Source: Gammaproteobacteria bacterium (lineage in GTDB: Bacteria; Pseudomonadota; Gammaproteobacteria; Poriferisulfidales; Poriferisulfidaceae). From it: 64,000 bases of DNA. Both the position numbers and the translations under genes were made by a program. A model generated the notes under the pieces. That model saw nothing but the letters and a program-made list of their open reading frames with translations, searched no databases and had not been told where the DNA came from. Positions 2,089-14,296 of the stretch are shown one piece after another (positions within the stretch are counted from its first letter, which is position 1; every line of letters begins with the position of its first letter). The stretch spans positions 55,670-119,669 of the forward strand of contig JAPONY010000059.1 in the NCBI GenBank assembly GCA_026713705.1, in the 5' to 3' direction.

Positions 2089-5000
2089 ATGCCTACTCGC
2101 CAGACCTCGGAATCCCGAGAAAAATTCAATCAGCTGAAAGCCCTACTGAGGGAAATGTTCCAACTTGACCGGGGCGACCTTGACTTCGGCCTGTACCGGA
2201 TCATGAACATGATGGCGGACAAGATCACGAAGTTCCTTGATAATGACTTGTTGCCTCAAGTCAAGACGATATTGGCCGGGGTCTCTGATGAGGACAGAGC
2301 CGATCTAGAAAAACATGTTGAAGACGCGAGAGCGATGGCCAAATCTCTGGGAATCAACCCGGACGATGCGCCGAAAGTGATTGAATTGGAACGGCAGTTG
2401 GCCGAAGCAAAAACAGATGCGGAAGCCGAGGCGGATGTCTATGGTTACTTGGCTAACTTTTTCTCCCGATACTACAGTGAAGGCGATTTCATGTCGCTGC
2501 GCCGCTACTCTGGAGGGGGCGACTCGGCCTATCATATTCCCTATGACGGGGAAGAGGTGAAACTGCACTGGGCCAATGCGGATCAATACTACATCAAGAC
2601 GGCGGAAAATTACGCCTCCTACGCTTTTACGCTCCAAAAGAACCGGCATGTCAAGTTTGAAACTGTAGCGGCCGATAGCAAGAAAGACAACATCAAGGAA
2701 ACTAGCGGCAGACAACGTCGCTTCGTGTTGGTGCCCGGGAAAGGTGCCATTGTGCATGCAGACGAGACACTGATAGTTCGCTTTGAGCATCGCCCGCTAA
2801 CGGATAGCGAAAAGAAGAAATTCCCTGGAAATGGGGACGGCCAACAAAACCGGATCAACCAAGCGACAACAGAGCGCATCTTGCAAAACCTAAATCCGGA
2901 TTGGCGAGCTTGTCTTTCTGAACTTGAGCCAACTGGAGCCAATAGCAAACGCACGAAACTCGAAAAGCACGTTGAACGCTACACAGCGAAAAATAGCTTT
3001 GACTACTTCATCCACAAGGACCTAGGTGGTTTCCTGCGCCGCGAGATGGATTTCTATCTGAAAAGCGATGTGTTCAACCTGAACGACATCAATGCCAGCA
3101 ATATGGTTCAATTACGCCGTGCGCAGTTGCGAGTGCGTGCGACTCGTGAAATGGGCGAGAAAATCATCTCCTTTCTTGAGCAGTTAGAAAATTTCCAGAA
3201 GAAACTCTGGCTCAAGAAGAAATTCGTACTGGACACGCATTGGTGCGCCACCCTCGACCACGTGCCAGAAACCTTCTACGCCGAAATAGCAGCCAATGAA
3301 AGGCAAGTTGAAGAATGGAAAGAACTGTTTGCGATTAACGAAATTGACGGTAGCCTTTCCAATGACGGCACGGGATATTCCGACCCACTAACCATCGGAT
3401 TTCTCAAGGCCAACCCGTATTTAATACTGGATACGAGACATTTTGACCGTGACTTCACAGACCGCCTACTAGCAACCTTGTCCGAAATTGGTCCATTGGA
3501 TGCGAAGACTGATGGAGTATTTGTCCATGGAGAGAATTTTCAAGCACTAAACCTTTTAAAGAAACGATACCACAGCCAAGTGGAATGCGTCTACATTGAT
3601 CCTCCCTACAATACAGGCGACTCAGAAATCTTGTATAAAAATGGGTACCTTAAATCCTCGTGGCTGACTCTGATGGCCAATCGGCTGGCTCTTCTCCCTG
3701 AAATATTAACTCAAGACCTTGTTCTCTATATCGCAATTGACGATTTTGAAATGGTCGACCTTGCAAAACTTCTAGATGAAGAATATCCCTCATTACGACG
3801 CGAGACAATTATTGTTAATCACCACCCACAAGGGGGGAAAGCTCAAACCTTAGCGCATACACATGAATACATGCTCGCATGCGTACCCACATCGTCAAGT
3901 AGAACACTTGTAGGAAGAACAGGCCACCGTGACGAAGAACAACGGCCGTTTAGAAGAAGCGGAACTGCCGAAAGTAACTTTCGTTACGCGCGGCCGAACA
4001 GTTTCTACGCAATTCTAGTAGACCCCTCTTCCCGTCAAGTTGTAGGTTTGGAACCGCCACCAATAAAACATGAGTATCCGACAGAACCGACTGACAAAAA
4101 TCTCGTCAGAATTTATCCTATTGGCGCACAAGGAGAGGAGCGGGTGTGGAGAAAGTCTTATAAATCATGCCAAGCACTCGTCGACGGTAACAAATTGTGC
4201 TGTTCCAAAAGCAATACAATTTATCAGAGGATTAATGCTGATGAGCGGAAAACTGCACTATTTAGCAACTGGACAGATTCCCGATATAACGCAGGCACAT
4301 TTGGCGCTAATTTGCTAAGCGACATCACTGGTGCACCCAATCAATTTTCCTATCCCAAATCAATTCATACTGTCGAAGACGCAATCTTCGCAGCCAACCT
4401 TAATGCGGACGCATATATATTGGATTATTTTGCTGGCTCCGGTACAACTGGCCATGCAATTATTAATCTAAATCGAGAAAATAACACTCATTACAAATAC
4501 CTAATGGTCGAGATGGCCGATCATTTCGATGCAGTGCTATTGCCACGTATCAAGAAAATCATTTATTCGCCAGGCTGGGAAGGCGGCAAACCAGCCTCCC
4601 GCGACGAAGGCATCTCGCAACTCTTCAAATACATCCGTCTCGAATCATACGAAGACACACTGGACGGCCTCGTATGGAAACCAAAGGAAAGTGATTTGTT
4701 CGCTGATAATCCTGCGCTGTCCGAAGACTATCAGCTGCGTTACTCGCTCAATGTAGAAACTCAAAACAGCACCAACCTGCTGGGCATGGATTGTCTCAAT
4801 CCATTTGCCTGTACCATTTCCACCGTACGCGATGGAGTGCGCCAAGATGTGCCCGTAGACCTGCCAGAAACTTTCAACCATCTTATTGGTCTGCATGTTC
4901 ACTCTTACCAGAAAATTGATGATGTTCTCTCTATTACTGGTACAGACAGCCAGAAACGAAATTGTCTGATTCTTTGGCGCAATCTCGAAAAAACAGACAA

Positions 5001-5184
5001 TGCCAAACTGGAAAAATGGTTCGATCTCAACCGGAAGCTCTTCCCTGACTCACTTGCTCTTGTCTACGTCAATGGCGACCACACTCTGAATGCGATTCGA
5101 GGAAAGAAAGACATCTGGACTGCGAAAACCATTGAACCCGTCTTTCGAGCCTTGATGTTCGAGGATTGCTCGTATGGCAAATAA
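2089..5184 (+). CDS. Large beta-class N6-adenine (or N4-cytosine) DNA methyltransferase: a Type III Mod-like C-terminal region (aa about 470–1031) fused to an uncharacterised N-terminal domain of about 470 aa
   Basis: 1031 aa. Motif IV DPPY lies at aa 504–507, preceded by the GENFQALNLLKKRY lead-in typical of the N6_N4 methyltransferase family. Motif I FAGSGTT lies at aa 781–787, after a stretch of about 270 aa that is presumably the target-recognition domain (TRD). This is the beta-class order IV...TRD...I. The N-terminal 470 aa (EKFNQLKALLREMFQLDRGDLDFGLYRIMN; YGYLANFFSRYYSEGDF...PYDGEEVK) matches nothing I can assign. GC is low. It overlaps the next gene by 11 nt. Confidence 0.85.
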   Translation: MPTRQTSESREKFNQLKALLREMFQLDRGDLDFGLYRIMNMMADKITKFLDNDLLPQVKTILAGVSDEDRADLEKHVEDARAMAKSLGINPDDAPKVIELERQLAEAKTDAEAEADVYGYLANFFSRYYSEGDFMSLRRYSGGGDSAYHIPYDGEEVKLHWANADQYYIKTAENYASYAFTLQKNRHVKFETVAADSKKDNIKETSGRQRRFVLVPGKGAIVHADETLIVRFEHRPLTDSEKKKFPGNGDGQQNRINQATTERILQNLNPDWRACLSELEPTGANSKRTKLEKHVERYTAKNSFDYFIHKDLGGFLRREMDFYLKSDVFNLNDINASNMVQLRRAQLRVRATREMGEKIISFLEQLENFQKKLWLKKKFVLDTHWCATLDHVPETFYAEIAANERQVEEWKELFAINEIDGSLSNDGTGYSDPLTIGFLKANPYLILDTRHFDRDFTDRLLATLSEIGPLDAKTDGVFVHGENFQALNLLKKRYHSQVECVYIDPPYNTGDSEILYKNGYLKSSWLTLMANRLALLPEILTQDLVLYIAIDDFEMVDLAKLLDEEYPSLRRETIIVNHHPQGGKAQTLAHTHEYMLACVPTSSSRTLVGRTGHRDEEQRPFRRSGTAESNFRYARPNSFYAILVDPSSRQVVGLEPPPIKHEYPTEPTDKNLVRIYPIGAQGEERVWRKSYKSCQALVDGNKLCCSKSNTIYQRINADERKTALFSNWTDSRYNAGTFGANLLSDITGAPNQFSYPKSIHTVEDAIFAANLNADAYILDYFAGSGTTGHAIINLNRENNTHYKYLMVEMADHFDAVLLPRIKKIIYSPGWEGGKPASRDEGISQLFKYIRLESYEDTLDGLVWKPKESDLFADNPALSEDYQLRYSLNVETQNSTNLLGMDCLNPFACTISTVRDGVRQDVPVDLPETFNHLIGLHVHSYQKIDDVLSITGTDSQKRNCLILWRNLEKTDNAKLEKWFDLNRKLFPDSLALVYVNGDHTLNAIRGKKDIWTAKTIEPVFRALMFEDCSYGK

Positions 5185-6064
5185 TCCTCCGAATCTTTCA
5201 TTCTCTCAACGCTACGGTCATGAGCCTCTGCCGGAGCCAATGCAACTGGAACATCTATCAAAAGACCTAAGGAGAGAAATCTGGAATGCCGTTCGGGATG
5301 GTCTGAAAGAAATCCGTTATTCTTCTATTGAATACACCGTTGATGCAAATGAACCGCCCTCAAGATTTTTTGCCCGTACCCTAGGCACTCTTGAAAAAAT
5401 CCCGGAAGATGAAGTACCTAGTCAAGATGGGCTGGTTCTCCAGCAATTCAAGTCAATAGTGATGCACCGTGATTTCAATATCGTATTAGACTTGATTGAA
5501 AGATTACTGAACAGTGATTTTCCTACTGCAGCACTTCGCTCCCGCATACCGGCTTTGTTTGAGAAACATGCTGCAGCATACCGGCTTGATATGTCTCAGC
5601 AACCGTATTGGTTTTATCCACAGGGCAACAGGGAGCAAGGAGAAGCAATACAGCAATCCATTGAAACAATTCATCAGAACAATATGGACGGTGCTACTAC
5701 ACACTTGCGTCAAGCTGTTGAACACATCAATGCGCAGCAATATGCAGACTCAATTACTGACAGCATCCATGCTGTCGAATCTGTAGCACGTCAGATCGCT
5801 CCTAAAGCAAATACTCTAGGTACGGCACTTAACTTTCTTATAAAAGAAGGATCATTAATGAATCCAGTACTTAAAAAAGCATTTGAAAAACTCTATGGAT
5901 ATACAAACAGTGAACAAGGTGTTCGACATGCTCTTTTGGACCAGGGTTCTCCTAATGTTGGCTTGGATGAGGCTGTTTTTATGTACGGGGCATGTGCGTC
6001 CTTTGCCGCATACCTGACCAGAAAATACCAGCAAGTAGCACAGCAAGGGACCGACGGCCGATGA
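5174..6064 (+). CDS. HEPN-domain protein, AbiJ-like (N-terminal AbiJ-NTD-like region plus C-terminal HEPN with Rx4HxN), embedded between mod-like and res-like genes
   Basis: 296 aa. The N-terminus MANNPPNLSFSQRYGHEPLPEPMQLEHLSKDLRREIWNAV resembles the N-terminal domains that accompany AbiJ-type HEPN proteins. The candidate HEPN motif is R179-QAVE-H184-I-N186 (TTHLRQAVEHINAQQY), followed by LYGYTNSEQGVRHALL. The start overlaps the upstream stop by 11 nt, and the stop overlaps the downstream ATG (ATGA), so it is translationally coupled on both sides. Confidence 0.55.
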   Translation: MANNPPNLSFSQRYGHEPLPEPMQLEHLSKDLRREIWNAVRDGLKEIRYSSIEYTVDANEPPSRFFARTLGTLEKIPEDEVPSQDGLVLQQFKSIVMHRDFNIVLDLIERLLNSDFPTAALRSRIPALFEKHAAAYRLDMSQQPYWFYPQGNREQGEAIQQSIETIHQNNMDGATTHLRQAVEHINAQQYADSITDSIHAVESVARQIAPKANTLGTALNFLIKEGSLMNPVLKKAFEKLYGYTNSEQGVRHALLDQGSPNVGLDEAVFMYGACASFAAYLTRKYQQVAQQGTDGR

Positions 6065-9000
6065 GGGGCCGACGGTCAGCACCCCTCCTCCAGGACCGTC
6101 TTGTCCTGCTCCGCTTCATGTGCCAGGAATTTGGCTATGCCGACATGGACGCGATGCTTGACCGCCTGCGCGATGCGCTGCCCGTATTCACAGCAAGAAG
6201 AGAAAGCGAATATGCCCGCGCCCTGTACCTGCACCCCGATAACGCAAGCATCAGCGCAGAAACTTTCACTGAATATGACGCAAATATCGCCATGTACAGC
6301 CAGCGCCTGCACATGACGGAAGAACGTGGTCGGTCATGGAAGCCCCATCAATATCTCGCGCTACTGTTCACCGAACACTACCTGAATCGCTATTTCAGTG
6401 ATCCCCAAGCGCTATGCGCTGGCCTGAATGCGACGAAAACCGCGAACCCGATGACCCGCAGCATGCCCGATTGCACCCCAAGGGATCTGCATACCGTCGC
6501 TCTCCAAAGCGCAACAGGCTCCGGCAAAACGCTGATCATGCATGCATCGATCCTGCAATACCAGCATTGGCTCAACCGCTCAGGCCAACGACTCAACAAC
6601 GTCATCCTTGTGACGCCGAACGAACACATGTCCAAACAACACAATCGGGATTTGCAGGAAAGCAATATCTCCGCACGGCTTTTCTCCAATGAGGCGGGCC
6701 CCGACTTATTCGCTTCCGTAGAGATCATTGATCTCAACAAGCTGGCAGAAAAAAGAGGGATCAAGCGTGTCGCGGTGCGGGATTTCGGCGAAAACAATCT
6801 GGTCCTAGTCGATGAGGGACACCTTGGGGCATCTGGAAAGGCATGGCGAGAACGCCGCGAGGAACTGGCACGGGGCGGATTTACTTTCGAGTATTCTGCA
6901 ACCTTCAATCAAATCACGGGCAAAGACCCTGCCCTGCGGGATGTCTACGGAAAATGCCTGCTGTTCGATTACGCTTACCGGGAGTTTTATAAGGACGGTT
7001 ACGGAAAGGACTACTCTATTTCGAACCTGCCAAGGGGAGCGGAAGACGAAAACAGCCGCATGTACCTGCTTGGGTGCCTGCTCACCTTTTACCTGCAATG
7101 TTGTATTTGGAGAGACAGGGATATCGAATGGGTTGATTTCAATTTGGCAAAACCGCTATGGGTGTTCCTCGGAAAAACCGTGACTGGAAGCAGCAAAGCA
7201 GATAGGGAGACCAAATCGGACGTTATCAATATCCTAGATTTTTTTGGTTGGCTGTTAGCGAATAAAAAGGATGTATGCGCCATGTTTAAACGTCTGCTGG
7301 CCAACGATTCAGGAATCACCAACGAACTAGACGAAGATTTCTTCGCTGACAGATTTGCCAGATTCAAATCGAGCCGGCCAAATGACCTCTACGCCGATAT
7401 TTGCGAAACCCTGTTTCACGGAGAAGGACAATTGCATGTCGTCTACATCACTGGCGGAGACGGTGAATTTCACTTACGCGCTGCTGACCATTCTCCCTTT
7501 GGCGTCGTCAACATCGGAGATTCGGCTGCCCTCCACAAAATACTGAAAGAAAAAGCTAACCCGGATTTTCGTGTGGAGCGGGAACTCGGCTTTGCAAAAG
7601 TGTTATTCCCGACGGTTGACCAGCCGGATTCAAAAGTGAACATCGTAATCGGTGCGCGCCGCTTTATTGCAGGATGGAACTGCTGGCGAGTCAGCACCAT
7701 GAGCCTAATGCATGTGGGTGTAGGAGAGGGACCAGAAATCATCCAGATGTTCGGAAGAGGAGTCCGCTTGAAAGGCTGGAACATGAGTTTGAAACGTCAT
7801 CAGAAAAGTGGTGCCAAACTACCGCAAGGCAGCGAGGAGCTGGCTGAATTGGAAACCCTGCATATCTTTGGATTGCGTGCGAACTACATGCAAATCTTCC
7901 GAGACCTGCTGGAAAAGGAGAGGATCGCACTGGAGCACATCAAACTCCCTGTGACGTGGAATTTCGCAAAAACGACCGACCTGAAATTCATCCGGCTCAA
8001 AAAGGGCCAAAAATACATGGGATCGGGAGAACGATTGACCTTGCCACTCCCCAACGCAGGCAATCCCACCGTGAAACTAGATTTGTATTCTCGGCTGCAA
8101 TCCGTAGCATCCAGCAAATCCACCGCCATCGAAAGAGAAAAGGTTCAATTCAAATTCACTCCGTGTCACACCTCCCTATTCAACAGGACTCGCATCTATG
8201 ACTCCCTGATAGCGCACAAGCGCCAAATGGGTTGGCACAATTTGGCCCTTCATGCTGAAACCATAGATGAACTACTAGCCAACGACACATGGTACGAACT
8301 TCAGGCCCCTCCCGAAAAAACCGATATGCAAAATTTTAAGGATGTGCAGGCATTAGAGGATGTGGCCATTGATCTTCTTGCCAAATATGCGGATCAACAT
8401 TGGCGAAAACAGCGAAGAAAGTGGGAGCATGAAAACATCGAGGTGGTGACGCTGGGTGAAAACGACCCGAACAACATCAAGGAACATCGGTTGTCGCTGG
8501 ATGCAAAAGAGGAAAGGCTAGTCGAGGATATTCGTTCACTCAGAACGAATCTCAACCACCCTCTTCCTAGAGACCTGAGGCTCATCGTCATCAGAACCAA
8601 GGTTCACGCCTATGAACCTCTCCTGTACGCGAGCAAGGACTGCAAGGTCACGGTCCAGCCCGTTCCCCTGAATCAAGGCGAAAAAAGCGTCGTAGAAAAA
8701 CTGGAGTCATTAGCCCGATACAACGATGGCTGCCTGCGAGGCCGAGACCTTTTCCTGATTCGCAACCGGACGCACGGCAGAGGCGTTTCTTTTTTTGATG
8801 ACTGCGGCTATTACCCGGACTTCATCGTCTGGTTGAAGAACGATAACAGCCAGCATGTAATCTTTCTTGATCCGAAAGGACTTGGCTACTATGGTCAGGA
8901 AAAACGCAAAAAAGTGGAATTACATGCTGAAATCAAGGAGGTCGAAAAGCGAGTGCGTAATGACGATCAAACCCTGCGCTTACACGCTTATGTCCTATCG

Positions 9001-9129
9001 GTCACTGCTCCGGAAAAGATTAGCGAACAACGCACGAAGCAGGAATGGAAAGAAGATGGCGTTTATTTTCTGCAAGACCCAGATTGCCTGAAACAAATTA
9101 TTACGGATGTGCTTGGGCCAACATCTTGA
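6061..9129 (+). CDS. Type III restriction Res-like protein: SF2 helicase (DEGH box) with a C-terminal PD-DxK endonuclease domain and an extra N-terminal region of about 150 aa
   Basis: 1022 aa from ATG 6061 (ATGA overlap with the upstream stop). The track's start at 5992 is an upstream in-frame extension. Walker A is LQSATGSGKT (K156). Motif II is LVLVDEGH (aa 250–253). Motif VI is QMFGRGVRLKGW. A C-terminal nuclease core is YYPDFIVWLKNDNSQHVIFLDPKG (PD...D-x-K). The arrangement is the same as EcoP15I-type Res but with a longer N-terminus. GC is low. Confidence 0.85.
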   Translation: MRGRRSAPLLQDRLVLLRFMCQEFGYADMDAMLDRLRDALPVFTARRESEYARALYLHPDNASISAETFTEYDANIAMYSQRLHMTEERGRSWKPHQYLALLFTEHYLNRYFSDPQALCAGLNATKTANPMTRSMPDCTPRDLHTVALQSATGSGKTLIMHASILQYQHWLNRSGQRLNNVILVTPNEHMSKQHNRDLQESNISARLFSNEAGPDLFASVEIIDLNKLAEKRGIKRVAVRDFGENNLVLVDEGHLGASGKAWRERREELARGGFTFEYSATFNQITGKDPALRDVYGKCLLFDYAYREFYKDGYGKDYSISNLPRGAEDENSRMYLLGCLLTFYLQCCIWRDRDIEWVDFNLAKPLWVFLGKTVTGSSKADRETKSDVINILDFFGWLLANKKDVCAMFKRLLANDSGITNELDEDFFADRFARFKSSRPNDLYADICETLFHGEGQLHVVYITGGDGEFHLRAADHSPFGVVNIGDSAALHKILKEKANPDFRVERELGFAKVLFPTVDQPDSKVNIVIGARRFIAGWNCWRVSTMSLMHVGVGEGPEIIQMFGRGVRLKGWNMSLKRHQKSGAKLPQGSEELAELETLHIFGLRANYMQIFRDLLEKERIALEHIKLPVTWNFAKTTDLKFIRLKKGQKYMGSGERLTLPLPNAGNPTVKLDLYSRLQSVASSKSTAIEREKVQFKFTPCHTSLFNRTRIYDSLIAHKRQMGWHNLALHAETIDELLANDTWYELQAPPEKTDMQNFKDVQALEDVAIDLLAKYADQHWRKQRRKWEHENIEVVTLGENDPNNIKEHRLSLDAKEERLVEDIRSLRTNLNHPLPRDLRLIVIRTKVHAYEPLLYASKDCKVTVQPVPLNQGEKSVVEKLESLARYNDGCLRGRDLFLIRNRTHGRGVSFFDDCGYYPDFIVWLKNDNSQHVIFLDPKGLGYYGQEKRKKVELHAEIKEVEKRVRNDDQTLRLHAYVLSVTAPEKISEQRTKQEWKEDGVYFLQDPDCLKQIITDVLGPTS

Positions 9130-9156: not shown

Positions 9157-9582
9157 ATGCCGCAATCCATGAAAAAAACCGATTCTCCGACATCCTTTGA
9201 GGACAAGGTTGCCGTGCTGATTGACGGCGGTCTGGAACTGTATTGGGATCGAACCGTCACCATGACTCCGGCCCAACGCGAAGCGGTTGCGCGGCTGGAA
9301 GAGAAGTTCCTGGAGGGGTTTAATGTGGACGGCGTGCGCTACGATCGCCCGGACTCGCTCAAGCGGGCTCAGTTGGCCGCAAGCCTGATCCCCCAGGCGC
9401 TGCAACGCGGGGATGATTCGCTGGCCGCCACTGCTCTGGCGCTGACCTGCACCTCCCTGCCCGACCTGAAACAGATCCAATATCGCCGACGGCAAGACGG
9501 GAGCTGGGATATCGCATTCGTCAGCGACCGTTTCTATGCACCTGACGAGCGGCCTGTCCAATTGATGCCACGCACTCCATGA
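9157..9582 (+). CDS. Hypothetical protein upstream of hemC; the true start is possibly internal (MTPAQREAV at about 9262)
   Basis: 141-aa ORF whose stop overlaps the hemC ATG (ATGA). GC rises to the host level only after about 9260. The opposite-strand ORF 9154..9561 looks less protein-like. Confidence 0.4.
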   Translation: MPQSMKKTDSPTSFEDKVAVLIDGGLELYWDRTVTMTPAQREAVARLEEKFLEGFNVDGVRYDRPDSLKRAQLAASLIPQALQRGDDSLAATALALTCTSLPDLKQIQYRRRQDGSWDIAFVSDRFYAPDERPVQLMPRTP

Positions 9583-10508
9583 GCAAATCTCTCTGCCGCA
9601 TTGCCACCCGCCGCAGCCCGCTCGCGGTCCGGCAGGCCGAACTGGTGGCCGAGGCGCTGGTCCAAGCGCAGGGCCTGAGCACGGAACTGCTGCGCGTGCA
9701 GACCGAGGGTGACCAGGTACTGGATCACCCCTTGGCCGAAATCGGTGGCAAGGGCCTGTTCGTCAAGGAACTCGAACTTCGCCTGCTGGCAGGCGACGCC
9801 GATCTTGCGGTTCATTCGATGAAGGATGTGCCGGCGGACCTCCCGGCCGGCCTCACGTTGGGCGCAATCTGCACCCGCGCCGACCCCCGGGACGGCGTCA
9901 TCGCCCCCCGCCACAAGACGCTTGACGCGCTCCCTGCAGGCAGCCGTGTCGGAACATCCAGCCTGCGGCGCAAGGCACAGTTGCAGGCACGGTTCCCGGA
10001 TCTTCAATTCCTGGATCTGCGCGGCAATGTCGGAACCCGCCTGAAACGGCTGCAAGATGGAGATTTCGAAGCCATTGTGCTGGCCTGTGCAGGCCTGCAG
10101 CGTCTAGACCTGGACGGGCAGATCACCCAGATCCTGGAGCCCGAAGAGTGCCTGCCCGCCATCGGCCAGGGCGCACTCGGCATCGAGATCGCCGAAGACC
10201 ATCCGCACGCTCGCGCCTGGGTGGCCGCATTGCACGACGACGCCACCGCCGCTGCCGTGACCGCGGAGCGCATGGTCAGCCGTGCGTTGTCCGGCAGCTG
10301 CCAGATTCCCCTGGCGGCCCATGCGGTCTGTACCGGCCTCCGAGAAGTCCGCCTGCAAGCCTGCCTCGCGCGCCCGAACGGCAGCCTGATCCTGCGTGCG
10401 GAAGCCGAGGGAGACCCCAAGATTGCCGGTGCGCTGGCCGCAAAACAACTGCTGGAACAAGGCGGTGCGGATATCCTGGCCGAACTGGGGGTCGAAGGCT
10501 ACGCATGA
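9579..10508 (+). CDS. hemC: Hydroxymethylbilane synthase (porphobilinogen deaminase)
   Basis: 309 aa. RIATRRSPLAVRQAELV...EGDQVLDHPLAEIGGKGLFVKELE is the canonical HemC sequence. Confidence 0.95.
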   Translation: MSKSLCRIATRRSPLAVRQAELVAEALVQAQGLSTELLRVQTEGDQVLDHPLAEIGGKGLFVKELELRLLAGDADLAVHSMKDVPADLPAGLTLGAICTRADPRDGVIAPRHKTLDALPAGSRVGTSSLRRKAQLQARFPDLQFLDLRGNVGTRLKRLQDGDFEAIVLACAGLQRLDLDGQITQILEPEECLPAIGQGALGIEIAEDHPHARAWVAALHDDATAAAVTAERMVSRALSGSCQIPLAAHAVCTGLREVRLQACLARPNGSLILRAEAEGDPKIAGALAAKQLLEQGGADILAELGVEGYA

Positions 10509-11281
10509 GCAGCGTACTTTCCGGCCGCCGAATCCTGCTGACCCGGCCTGAAGGACAAGTCGAGTCGCTGGCTACACGCTTGCGTGCGCAAGGCGCGGAA
10601 ATCAGCCACTTCCCCGCCATCCGGATTACCCTGGCGCCTCCGGATTCGACCGCCCAAGTCCTGGTCGAACAGGCAACATTCATCATCTTCGTGAGCGCCA
10701 ACGCGGTGCGGGGCCTGATGGCAGGTCCCGACCCGCTTGTACATGTCGTCCGCCGCGCCTCCGGGATTGCCGCCATCGGCCCGGCCACAACCAAGGCCCT
10801 GCTGCAGATCGGCCTGGAACCCGATGTCGTGGCCCCTCCCCCGTACAACAGCGAAGCACTGTTGTCCGCACCCGTGCTGCAGGATCTGAAGCGCCGGCAG
10901 GTCGTCATCGTCCGGGGGCAGAGCGGGCGCGAGATGTTGGCCGACGAACTGGGGCGTCGTGGTGCAGAGGTGCAGTATCTGGAAGTCTACCGCCGCGACC
11001 CGCCGACCGATATGCTGTCCATCGGGGAAATGCCGGGCGGTCCTCCGGAGGCGATCTGCATCACCAGCGCCGAGATCGCCGAGAACCTTCTGCAATGCGT
11101 CACATCGGAAGAAGAAACTGTACTTCGAGAGAGCGCACTCATCGCCGGCAACACACGGATCGCCGAAGCCTGTCGTAAACTTGGCTACACTGCGCCTGCC
11201 GGAGTGGCCGACAACCCCGGGGACGACGCCATGATCGATGCCTTGACCAGTTGCTTCGCGGCCTTGCCGCCAAACGCATGA
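10505..11281 (+). CDS. hemD: Uroporphyrinogen-III synthase
   Basis: ATG at 10505 overlaps the hemC stop (ATGA). MSSVLSGRRILLTRPEGQ is typical of HemD. The track's longer ORF (10148) is an artefactual extension into hemC. Confidence 0.85.
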   Translation: MSSVLSGRRILLTRPEGQVESLATRLRAQGAEISHFPAIRITLAPPDSTAQVLVEQATFIIFVSANAVRGLMAGPDPLVHVVRRASGIAAIGPATTKALLQIGLEPDVVAPPPYNSEALLSAPVLQDLKRRQVVIVRGQSGREMLADELGRRGAEVQYLEVYRRDPPTDMLSIGEMPGGPPEAICITSAEIAENLLQCVTSEEETVLRESALIAGNTRIAEACRKLGYTAPAGVADNPGDDAMIDALTSCFAALPPNA

Positions 11282-12255
11282 GCCGCACCACGCGACTGGG
11301 TGCTGCATTGACCGTAATCGGCTGGCTGGGCCTGGCTGCGGTCGGCGCCCTGCTGTACATGCTGTGGACCGACACGCAGACCCGCTTCCTCGAACTGCGC
11401 GACCGCCAGCTCGAAACCCACCAGTCCGCGCACCAGGCGCTGATGGAAGTCGACCGGCGCCTGGCTGGCCTATCCGAGGAGCAGCACCGGACCCAGGCCC
11501 TGGTGGACCAGTTCTTGGAAGAACTGCGGATCCGCTACACGACCTACGAGACCCTGCTGCAGCAGAAGCTGGCCCCGATTTCGATCGCCCCCGACCCGCG
11601 CCAGTATCCGGTCGAGGAACTTGCCTTCCTACTGCAGATTGCTCAATATAAGCAGAATTACCTTCAGGATTCCCTCGGCACACTGAGTGCCCTGCGCCAA
11701 GCCCGCCAAGTGCTGGACTCCCTGGACCCGGTCCACCACCACACCCTGATCCAGCAAGTGGATCAAGCGATTACAATCCTGGAGGGCTACCGGGGCGAGG
11801 AGGCGGAGCATGCACATCGCATCCTGACCGGGAGTTGGCTCGTGCTGAGCGAGAAGATTGGACAGTTGCAGGCGGCTGTCGAGCGCCAGAACCAGACCCT
11901 GGCCACCGGTGGCTGGGGCCAGATCTGGGATTCCATCGTCGAGCAATTCGACGAACACCTCGAGGTACAGAAAGGTGCCCCGCAGGCGGTGCAGACCATT
12001 TCGGCCTACCAGCACATCCTGATCCTGTACGCCGCGCAAACCGAACTGTACCTGGCTCGCCTGGCCTTGCAGTCCCATCGCTCCGATGCCTACATGCAAT
12101 CCCTGGAGCATGTCCTGGCCCTGCTTTCGCAGCCAGCGCTTGAGAACAGCTACCCGGCACTGAAACACGACCTGGAGGTGCTGCGGGAGCAGAACCCTTT
12201 CCCGCCCTCCATTGATTTCGAACAACTGACCCGAACGCTGCCGCCGACTCAATGA
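11278..12255 (+). CDS. hemX: HemX-like membrane protein (uroporphyrinogen-III C-methyltransferase-like)
   Basis: ATG at 11278 overlaps the hemD stop. It has an N-terminal transmembrane helix and then a long coiled-coil region. Its position in hemCDXY is conserved. Confidence 0.75.
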   Translation: MSRTTRLGAALTVIGWLGLAAVGALLYMLWTDTQTRFLELRDRQLETHQSAHQALMEVDRRLAGLSEEQHRTQALVDQFLEELRIRYTTYETLLQQKLAPISIAPDPRQYPVEELAFLLQIAQYKQNYLQDSLGTLSALRQARQVLDSLDPVHHHTLIQQVDQAITILEGYRGEEAEHAHRILTGSWLVLSEKIGQLQAAVERQNQTLATGGWGQIWDSIVEQFDEHLEVQKGAPQAVQTISAYQHILILYAAQTELYLARLALQSHRSDAYMQSLEHVLALLSQPALENSYPALKHDLEVLREQNPFPPSIDFEQLTRTLPPTQ

Positions 12256-13421
12256 AAATCCTGGTGCTGATCTTCGTGGCACTGCTGGTGACGGGCCTGA
12301 CGGCTTGGACCGCCCAGACCCAAGGAGGCGAAGTCATCGTGCATGTGGCCGACTACACGGTCCGGGCCTCCCTGTTGATGGCCCTGCTGGTTGGCATCGG
12401 AACCATGTTCGGGATTTTCGTGCTGGTGGGTCTGCTGTCGCGAACGCTGGAAACTCCGCAGCGCCTTAGGAAACGGCACAAGTCCCGCCGCCGCGACCGC
12501 ACGGACATCCTGTTCGCACAGGGGCTGCGCAACATGCTGGAAGACCGGCTGGACGCCGCTCGGCAGGATCTGGAGCAGGCGGCGAAGATGGAACCCAAGC
12601 AATCGATTTTTCAGCTTCTGGCGGCTTCGGTCTGCATTAAGGCCAACGACCGGGACGCCTGGAACGCGCACCTGCGCGCGGTGACCGATCCCGACTATCA
12701 GACGGCCAGCACCTGGCTCAAGGCCGATGGTTTGGTTGCCGCGGGAGAATGGGAAGAAGCCCTGGCCGTCCTGCAGGTGCTGGCAGGCGACAATCCGAGG
12801 AATCCCCGAGTCCTGCGCCAGTTAGCCCGTTGCTACCGGGAATTGAACAGCTGGGAGCGACTGTTCGAACTGGGACGGGACCAGGTACGCCTTGCGCACC
12901 TGCCGCAAGACGAAACCCGCCAGTGGCTGCGCGATGCTGCCTATCGCCTGTGCGAAGACACCCAGGAGTCGGAACTAAAGTCCCTGTGGCCGAAACTCGG
13001 AGATGCGCGCGACGACCCGGAAGTCCTGCGCCACTACATCGGGCGACTTCAGCGCTGCGGGCTGTCGCATCCGGAACTGGAGCCGCACCTGCGCAAACTG
13101 CTGGACTCCAACCTTGACGACACGGCGATCGAACTGTACGGCATGTTGCCGAACCCGATCACCCCGAACATGGTCGAGAAAGTCCGGAAGTGGCTGGCAA
13201 AGAATCCCGAGCAAGTCTCGCTGAAGCGTACCCTGGCGCGACTGCACAGCCGCCTCGGGCAACACGCCGAGGCTCGCGAGCAACTGGAGGCCCTTGAGAA
13301 GCAAGGCGGCGATGCCCTGCTGTACCGGGAACTGGGGGAGACCCTGGAGCGGATGGGCCAGGGCGAGGCCGCGCAGGCGTACTACCGGAAAGGGCTGCAG
13401 TCCCTGGACAAGACCCCTTAG
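12252..13421 (+). CDS. hemY: HemY-like protein (two N-terminal transmembrane helices plus TPR repeats)
   Basis: 389 aa. MKILVLIFVALLVTGLTAW then a second transmembrane helix and a TPR-rich C-terminus. It overlaps the hemX stop. Confidence 0.8.
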   Translation: MKILVLIFVALLVTGLTAWTAQTQGGEVIVHVADYTVRASLLMALLVGIGTMFGIFVLVGLLSRTLETPQRLRKRHKSRRRDRTDILFAQGLRNMLEDRLDAARQDLEQAAKMEPKQSIFQLLAASVCIKANDRDAWNAHLRAVTDPDYQTASTWLKADGLVAAGEWEEALAVLQVLAGDNPRNPRVLRQLARCYRELNSWERLFELGRDQVRLAHLPQDETRQWLRDAAYRLCEDTQESELKSLWPKLGDARDDPEVLRHYIGRLQRCGLSHPELEPHLRKLLDSNLDDTAIELYGMLPNPITPNMVEKVRKWLAKNPEQVSLKRTLARLHSRLGQHAEAREQLEALEKQGGDALLYRELGETLERMGQGEAAQAYYRKGLQSLDKTP

Positions 13422-13829
13422 TGCAAGACAGGCCCTCCTGATTCCGGCTCGTCCGGGCCGGGCGGGGGCGAGGCATGATGCATGATCATGCGCCAGCCTT
13501 CATCCGTGCCGCAGTAGATGTTGGTCGCCAGCACGATGCCGACGATATGGTGCCGCAGGTACAGGGTTTCCGTCAGATGGCTGATGGCGAACTGGTCTGC
13601 CAACTCGTCCCGGTAATGGTATTCCCGTTCGAAATGAAACGGTACTTCCGCCTGGAAGATCTGTTTCCAGCTCTCCTCCACCTCCTCGCGCCCGGTCAGC
13701 AGCTGGCCTCCGGGATGGATGCAGAATATCGAGCGGTCCGTTGCCCATACCTGCATCATGGCCTCTACATCCTGCTGAGCGAACGCCTCGTAGAAAGCGT
13801 CTTCGGCTTCGGCCGCGGAACGTAGCATG
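13418..13829 (-). CDS. SnoaL-like / NTF2-fold (DUF4440-like) protein
   Basis: Start set at MLRSAAEAEDAFYEAFAQQDVEAMMQVWA (ATG 13829). The upstream part of the track ORF lies in AT-rich DNA. The fold call comes from an NTF2-like composition pattern and is low-confidence. Confidence 0.5.
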
Positions 13830-13915
13830 ATGTGGTGTGCCCCTCTCTCTTGAGTATCATACTCGCCCCCTTTAACCCATCCCCACCTGCCTCCCATTTT
13901 GATAGACTTGGGTGC

Positions 13916-14194
13916 ATGAAACTCTTCAGATCGCCGCATTCGACGAAGCCCAAGCCGCAGTCATGGTCCAAACCATCACAGCGACTGGCACCGCTTAACC
14001 ACGAAAAACTATCTGAATCGGGTAGTCGGCCAGTTGATCCATATGAAGAAGACTGGGACATGCACCCCGACACGCGGGCTGCATTGCAGGAGTTTCGCGC
14101 CGACATGCGGGCTTCATTTCGGGAGCTTCGCTGGTATATCGCCTACGTCGGAGCCATGACGATTATCATAGTGAAGTCTCTTTCGCTTGTGTGA
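13916..14194 (+). CDS. Short DUF1640-like protein (coiled-coil plus C-terminal transmembrane helix); the start could be 13832
   Basis: The C-terminus RADMRASFRELRWYIAYVGAMTIIIV is paralogous to the C-terminus of the 14429..14827 protein. Confidence 0.4.
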   Translation: MKLFRSPHSTKPKPQSWSKPSQRLAPLNHEKLSESGSRPVDPYEEDWDMHPDTRAALQEFRADMRASFRELRWYIAYVGAMTIIIVKSLSLV

Positions 14195-14296
14195 AGACCC
14201 CGTAAGATCCACTCAAGCAAATATCCAGAGGATGCCGAAAAAATCACCCTGAAGTCGCATCCAGAATAGCCTATAACCTATTGACTTTCAAAGGAT

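Follow-up and report, generated by a model that had tools for sequence, protein, structure and literature searches.

The window analysed here is a stretch of 64,000 nucleotides, the first 9.5 kb of which form an island of low GC content (0.45-0.55, vs 0.65-0.70 elsewhere) that terminates at hemC (9579-10508). This island carries three co-oriented and overlapping genes, all on the plus strand, as are all features given below. The first gene, mod (2089..5184, 1031 aa), encodes an N-terminal domain of 470 residues (the N-domain), a beta-class N6/N4 methyltransferase with an internal target-recognition region, and a C-terminal domain. The last gene, res (5992..9129), matches the Pfam family ResIII (PF04851) at aa 166-306 of its product, and its true start is likely the ATG at 6058. 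Between mod and res lies an AbiJ-like gene (5174..6064, 296 aa) that overlaps each of them and has an AbiJ_NTD4 domain (Pfam PF18863, E 2.7e-11); its product also matches the PADLOC candidate PDC-S32 (E 6e-54).

The methyltransferase core of Mod together with its variable target-recognition region takes up aa 471-830 (3499..4578), and the Pfam family N6_N4_Mtase (PF01555) spans aa 498-811. The initial annotation had placed the start of the methyltransferase only at about residue 470, and this holds, with the DPPY motif at 504-507. The order of the motifs, with DPPY (motif IV) followed by the recognition region and then by FAGSGTT (motif I, 781-787), is that of the beta class, as had also been proposed. 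The conserved C-terminal domain (4579..5184, aa 831-1031) is the positional equivalent of the Res-contacting C-terminal domain of EcoP15I Mod. The protein matches the 1057-position PADLOC profile MTase_III PDLC03646 with an E value of 8e-224, and phmmer aligns it with the solved Type III Mods 6k0w (E 7.6e-23), 7dsu (E 2e-22) and 4zcf (E 5.9e-18). The three solved proteins (4zcf being EcoP15I and 7dsu Mbo45V) share with it the beta-class methyltransferase, the internal recognition region and the C-terminal domain. In a Foldseek search the full-length Mod model superposes on EcoP15I Mod (4zcf_B, E 1.2e-18), 6k0w and Mbo45V Mod, the superposition extending over the methyltransferase core, the recognition region and the C-terminal domain. 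What sets the proteins apart is the region ahead of the methyltransferase, which counts about 60-95 residues in classical Type III Mods and 470 in the Mod of the window. The phmmer alignments start at about residue 475 of the query and residue 96 of the targets, hence it is the final ~95 residues of this domain that occupy the place of the classical short N-terminal region, and some 375 of the 470 N-domain residues are extra with respect to the solved Type III Mods.

The partner gene accords with a Type III-like arrangement as well, for in Type III systems mod comes before res, whose product combines an SF2 helicase with a PD-(D/E)xK motif at the C-terminus. Res of the window matches the PADLOC profile REase_III PDLC03654 (E 2e-152). 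Its Walker A motif, SATGSGKT (nt 6508-6531), precedes DEGH and motif VI, and near its C-terminus there is a PD-(D/E)xK motif (8815..8880; P942-D943...D960-P961-K962, numbered from the start at 5992). Walker A, DExH, motif VI and the C-terminal P-D...D-P-K are each at least 95% conserved in 67 Res homologues, and so are PDF and DPK taken separately. As far as its sequence tells, Res is thus a complete cutter with an intact SF2 helicase and a conserved nuclease motif, and the prediction of a second, Res-type nuclease adjacent to mod was borne out; phmmer finds no match between this Res and any PDB chain, EcoP15I Res included.

In every testable respect, namely motif order, similarity to solved Mods and an adjacent res, the locus is Type III-like, and it is an unexceptional representative of a lineage that the PADLOC/REBASE-derived MTase_III and REase_III entries already cover. 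The profiles of PDLC03646 and PDLC03654 cover the N-domain too, as catalogue entries that carry no functional description of it. The Mod with the large N-domain, which we call the long form, is always accompanied by a Res of a distinct lineage wherever the downstream flank suffices. To describe the locus context we used 67 complete mod-res pairs, 34 of the window type and 33 of a more distant type, here called B-type. The AbiJ_NTD4 gene occurs in 14 of the 34 window-type loci. A gene for an SNF2 protein of ~960 aa lies directly upstream of mod in 28 of the 33 B-type loci, whereas it is absent from 33 of the 34 window-type loci; the clade of the window therefore differs from most members of PDLC03646 and PDLC03654 in having no such gene. 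The B-type systems include IncF plasmids of Klebsiella and E. coli, and the E. coli plasmid homologue matches PDLC03646 end to end. The accessions of these plasmid homologues are not mentioned in the literature we searched, which holds nothing on this lineage with respect to SNF2 and Type III and does not describe a function of the N-domain.

Several other identities were considered for the locus and rejected. Type IIG/IIL enzymes such as MmeI and BpuSI likewise carry a large N-terminal region before the methyltransferase in one polypeptide. In those enzymes, however, the N-terminal PD-ExK domain is a recognised one, the methyltransferase is of the NPPY kind with its motifs in the opposite order, and a separate Res is lacking. 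The proposal of a Type IIG-like fusion therefore fails, since the motifs here follow the beta-class order and mod has, downstream of it, a res gene of its own that encodes a nuclease motif. HVO_A0079 of Haloferax was discarded as a lead on the ground of being an alpha-type enzyme with NPPY. Class 1 DISARM (DrmD SNF2, DrmMI and DrmABC) resembles the B-type systems, in which a DrmD-like SNF2 protein (PADLOC DrmD, E 2.5e-196) stands beside an adenine methyltransferase. This identity was dismissed because the window has no SNF2 gene and a PADLOC scan of four island proteins gave no match to DrmA, DrmB, DrmC or DrmMI. DrmMI was also set aside as a relative of Mod, as it is a pfam13659 methylase (10.1101/2021.12.28.474362) and PADLOC gave no such match.

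What distinguishes this Mod is the N-domain (2089..3498, aa 1-470). With the family clustered at 50% identity, an exhaustive phmmer search gave 2,509 cluster representatives when the threshold was E<=1e-3, and 907 when it was E<=1e-30; full-length members are mostly 1000-1130 aa long. In an alignment of 147 diverse sequences, conservation of at least 95% is seen at 61 columns of the N-region, whereas the methyltransferase segments have nine such columns and the recognition region has none. Such conservation is far above chance expectation. The N-domain is thus a genuine, widespread and strongly conserved accessory domain that defines the family, and it is the most constrained part of Mod. In 72 full-length homologues with 33-51% identity to the query, the residues L31, F33, G34, R37, F124, R127, D133, G154, Q166, Y168, K170, D305, F307, H309, E367, K378, Q406 and W410 are invariant. 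The three blocks quoted in the initial annotation are all present. The first, QLDRGDLDFGLYRIMN (2161..2208, aa 25-40), contains the invariant L31, F33, G34 and R37 as well as D27 and D32, which are conserved to at least 90%. The second, YGYLANFFSRYYSEGDF (aa 118-134), opens the most conserved block of all, FFxRYYxxGDF...YxIPYxGEEVKLHWANxDQYYIKTxE (2440..2607, aa 118-173), and the third, DYFIHKDLGGFLRREMDFYLKSD (3001..3069, aa 305-327), holds the invariant D305, F307, H309, F315 and L316. A further, basic motif, LEQLENFQKKLWLKKKFV (3172..3228, aa 362-380), includes the invariant E367 and K378, and a conserved basic patch of the N-domain reads LWLKKKF.

By sequence, aa 1-470 match no Pfam family, and no PDB chain either with phmmer or with a 22-sequence profile. 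Nothing was found for the N-region in Pfam, NCBIfam or PHROGs, and 22 diverse members scanned singly against Pfam gave no consistent match there. Predicted with AlphaFold, the N-region alone has a mean pLDDT of 74, with residues 28-34 and 132-161 below 50. An AF2 model of full-length Mod from a more diverse alignment reaches a mean pLDDT of 86.6 and a pTM of 0.82, and within the N-domain it falls below 50 only at the extreme N-terminus and at 144-161. On these models the N-domain is predicted to be a folded alpha/beta module N-terminal to the beta-class methyltransferase, composed of a helical hairpin (7-128), a beta-sheet (166-236) and a helical bundle with interleaved strands (239-470). The stretch 144-161 is unplaced in both models, neither of which places a PD-(D/E)xK core. 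With the N-only model, no Foldseek result in PDB or BFVD is better than E 0.5, and there is neither a structural neighbour nor a nuclease among the results. Mutual information across the domain, drawn from ~242 effective sequences, gives sheet-like pairs and a few pairs between segments. Weak covariation connects the motif at 27-37 with the beginning of the sheet and with the helix at 305-327, though with this number of effective sequences it may be phylogenetic, and the signal was too weak to define a three-dimensional cluster of residues.

The initial annotation had read D133, E156 and K158 in the most conserved block as a possible PD-(D/E)xK nuclease core. The residue numbers are correct (codons 2485-2487, 2554-2556 and 2560-2562), while the spacer between EGDF and YDGEEVK, given as 19 residues, is actually of 17. 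Whether the three residues are conserved can be answered for 350 long-form sequences. Position 133 is D in all 348 homologues with a residue there, 156 holds E in 343 sequences and D in six more, and 158 is K in 313. Where K158 is missing, position 164 (codon 2578-2580) is K or R in 31 of 37 sequences, vs 11 of the 313 that have K158 (Fisher p 4e-29), so that 346 of the 350 carry K or R at one of the two positions. For each of the two positions, a neighbour-joining tree shows about 17 changes of state. This swapping indicates that a positive charge is required and can be supplied from either position, a behaviour more in keeping with an electrostatic contact than with a catalytic lysine that must sit at a precise place. 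The hydrophobic/polar alternation read from V157-K158-L159-H160-W161 would suit a strand. If, as the alternating pattern suggests, aa 156-171 form a hairpin, position 164 would lie at the turn and distant from 158, and this again would favour a loose charge. The models differ just here, since the N-only model predicts strands at 157-163 and 166-171, whereas the full-length model has coil with a short helix at 157-163. We infer a putative charged site specific to the long form, made up of D133, E155/E156, K158 (or K/R164), N163, D165, Q166, H309, D311 and E319.

A comparison with a second family bears on this site. The short-form Mods (PADLOC MTase_III PDLC03638) have the core of the N-domain in common with the long form, over aa ~105-203 and 289-470 of the window Mod; the PDLC03638 profile itself matches aa 111-203 and 289-418, and the E value of the shared core is 6e-34. 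They differ in that fewer residues precede this core and the acidic residues of the long-form N-terminal motif are not evident. Plasmid examples are the 899-aa Mod of Rhodothermus marinus (pRHOM17201, WP_014072507) and the 825-aa one of Athalassotoga. The Res proteins adjoining them belong to the same distant lineage and show 22% identity along the full length; in both short-form loci inspected, SNF2 is absent. Residues common to both families are FFxRY, Y148, W161, Y167, Y168, K170, D305, F307, K310, E367, K376, K378, Q406, W410 and D448-T449. At the positions of the triad, all 120 short-form sequences have G133 and D156, their residue at 158 is hydrophobic in every case (114 times M, I or V), and the other positions read T at 163, M or R at 165, L at 166, N or C at 309 and Q at 319. 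Because the core is shared and the triad is different, the fold core should be older than D133/E156/K158, and the aligned residues indicate that the triad belongs to a larger polar set, specific to the long form, that was gained or lost as a block.

In six short-form clusters (P0283, P0295, P0298 with 21 members, P0304, P0313 and P0347) the N-domain is not joined to a methyltransferase at all and is followed directly, at aa ~380-500, by DUF559 (PF04480), which we take to be a Vsr-like PD-(D/E)xK endonuclease domain. These genes are orphans in unrelated contexts, one next to a his operon and another next to SMC and groES, and they have no Res neighbour. With either a methyltransferase or DUF559 as partner, the N-domain behaves as a portable module serving both, and the presence of a dedicated nuclease beside it argues against the module itself being a nuclease, at least in the short form.

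Taking these observations together, we consider it most likely, with a probability of about 0.4, that the N-domain is a non-nucleolytic assembly platform, an enlarged counterpart of the N-terminal domain of EcoP15I Mod. In EcoP15I, the helical N-terminal domain of Mod (aa 14-60) is part of the Mod2 interface, where it intertwines the two protomers and blocks a second Res so that only one binds, and the C-terminal domain contacts Res (PMC4490356). By analogy, the N-domain would serve the dimerisation of Mod and the loading of Res, its invariant stretch 144-161 might take on order only once Mod is oligomeric or bound to DNA, and the cleavage of DNA would be done by Res. The positional precedent of EcoP15I counts for this reading. 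So does the fact that Res already supplies the cleavage, and so does the short form, which keeps the core without the triad and is fused to DUF559, as suits a modular domain that does not cut. The flexible position of the lysine, at 158 or 164, agrees with it as well. Against the assembly platform stand the roughly 20 invariant charged residues, which are rare for an interface and look more like a catalytic or ligand-binding site. In addition, the DUF559 fusions without a Res neighbour imply that docking of Res cannot be the sole role of the domain.

The main rival to an assembly role is a role in sensing or DNA binding, in which the putative charged pocket would serve as a binding site for the backbone of DNA or for a small ligand such as a metal or a nucleotide, and would so gate methylation vs restriction instead of only keeping the subunits together; we hold it to be a possible explanation, if a somewhat doubtful one. 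It would account for the long-form polar set being wholly replaced in the short form while the core of the fold is kept, as though a binding site had been gained or lost, and for a positive charge that is interchangeable between 158 and 164. The basic patch and the alternative fusion to a methyltransferase or an endonuclease, as expected of a module serving DNA enzymes, point the same way, and so does the covariation, subject to its possible phylogenetic origin. Nevertheless, no ligand-binding or DNA-binding family was matched by Pfam, by the PDB searches with sequence and profile, or by Foldseek.

On balance, it is unlikely that the N-domain of the long form acts through D133...E156-x-K158 as a nuclease, be it a divergent PD-(D/E)xK enzyme or another metal-dependent one, which would make Mod a second cutter beside Res. 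One part of the original proposal does stand, as the near-complete conservation of D133, of an acidic residue at 156 and of K/R at 158 or 164 holds throughout the long form, though only there. A strand at 157-161 would put E156 and K158 on one face with a long helix before it, and more invariant acidic residues are nearby in sequence. Catalytic residues are, moreover, known to migrate within the PD-(D/E)xK superfamily. Support from fold or profile did not emerge. Scanned against Pfam at E<=1, 22 diverse members show not so much as a weak match to the PD-(D/E)xK clan; Foldseek finds no nuclease in PDB and BFVD, and the full-length AF2 model builds no core and conflicts with the N-only model at 157-163. 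Comparing the N-domain profile with the Res nuclease, DUF559 and YhcG by hhalign gave probabilities of 0.2-1.9%, but those of the positive control (Res nuclease vs DUF559 and YhcG) were equally low, so that this comparison lacks power and is not counted against the nuclease. The putative turn at 164, the G133 and hydrophobic 158 of a short form that recruits a separate DUF559, and the nuclease motif retained by Res also speak against it. In a broader version, the N-domain would hold a new metal-dependent catalytic site, for a nuclease or another phosphoesterase, in a fold that has no solved relative, and Mod would be a second effector beside Res; we regard this as improbable. The residues of such a site could be D27/D30/D32, D133, E155/E156, K158 or K/R164, N163/D165/Q166 and H309/D311/E319, an assignment to which we likewise give low odds.

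Lastly, it is unlikely as well that the N-domain mainly docks the DrmD-like SNF2 ATPase of three-gene systems and is a leftover in the clade of the window, for although most B-type loci have that gene directly upstream of mod and both inspected short-form loci are without it, the invariant N-domain residues are all kept in window-type and B-type alike, in the SNF2-less loci across 48-68% identity, so that these residues are independent of SNF2, their charged members cannot be explained by its docking, and a function without SNF2 is argued for.

In view of the family as a whole, about 375 residues of the N-domain have no counterpart in solved Type III Mods, no Pfam family and no structural neighbour, and yet they belong to the most constrained part of a protein carried by thousands of genomes, IncF plasmids of Klebsiella and E. 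coli among them. To define what the N-domain does, be it assembly, regulation or catalysis, would explain the mechanistic difference of this lineage from EcoP15I-type enzymes, as well as the reason for which most of its members have taken up a DISARM-like SNF2 ATPase. Should the charged pocket prove to be catalytic, it would represent a new enzyme fold within restriction-modification.

The junction between mod, the Type III-like methyltransferase gene (2089-5184, +), and res, the gene of its helicase-nuclease partner, is a cargo site in this lineage, with more than 300 nt separating the two genes in 41 of the 67 complete homologous loci (L-numbers). In the window the junction is occupied by a gene of about 300 aa containing an AbiJ_NTD4 domain (5174-6064, +; PADLOC PDC-S32), which overlaps mod and whose 3' end overlaps res whichever of the candidate starts, 5992 or 6058, is taken; the C-terminal half of its product was not identified as HEPN by Pfam. 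An AbiJ_NTD4 gene lies between mod and res in 14/34 window-type loci and in 0/33 of the more distant SNF2-type loci, further examples being L008, L009, L010, L012, L013, L014, L016, L018, L024, L028, L032, L035, L036 and L041. Restriction-modification operons with embedded HEPN/Abi genes have already been described (PMC3710099). Among the cargo genes at this junction are pairs encoding AAA_21 and DUF4276 proteins, genes for PHP+SMC-like ATPases (874-956 aa) and genes for YhcG/DUF1016 PDDEXK proteins; on the Rhodothermus plasmid the cargo is a SMODS+Cap15 pair resembling a minimal CBASS. Examples of junction cargo are found at L002 12162-13939, L045 12972-14805, L040 13073-15697, L071 7041-9878, L054 12900-13928 and L083 10105-11558.

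Regarding Mod itself, its last 200 residues or so (aa 831-1031; window 4579-5184) form a conserved domain with the motifs RLESYED, VDLxETFNxLxGL and YVNGD, which is without Pfam annotation and matches in position the Res-contacting CTD of EcoP15I Mod. Upstream of mod, and likewise inside the low-GC island, there are a Phd/YefM-type antitoxin fragment (376-639, -; PF02604, E 8.6e-9) and a gene for a 344-aa protein without family match (644-1678, -), whose hydrophobic stretch probably spans the membrane.

Two homologous loci carry a tandem pair of long-form mod genes with one res downstream (L022 6350-13174, L023 7008-13096), which may provide two specificities or a heterodimeric Mod. L003 has at 9911-14242 one continuous ORF of 1443 aa with similarity to Res as well as to the Mod N-domain/methyltransferase, which suggests either a Mod-Res fusion by deletion or an assembly artefact. 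In orphan genes (L085 8001-9959, L086 6001-7713, L087 1756-3468) the methyltransferase is replaced and the short-form N-domain is joined to a DUF559 (PF04480) endonuclease domain, with no Res or methyltransferase nearby; in the protein match P0295, the sequence downstream of DUF559 looks like low-complexity read-through. The matches listed by the word-indexed protein search (P0001-P0120) are all 373-811 aa despite long contigs, and several C-termini inspected resemble frameshifted read-through; these are probably either pseudogenes or the result of assembly errors in metagenome-assembled genomes built from long reads.

Across the wider family, the majority of members have a three-gene operon in the order DrmD-like SNF2, mod, res (L001 5977-8940; upstream of mod among L038-L082), and a small HTH gene lies upstream in the three-gene systems inspected on E. 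coli and Aeromonas plasmids. Many members of the window's clade come from metagenome-assembled genomes of sponge symbionts, and in this clade SNF2 was either lost or never acquired.
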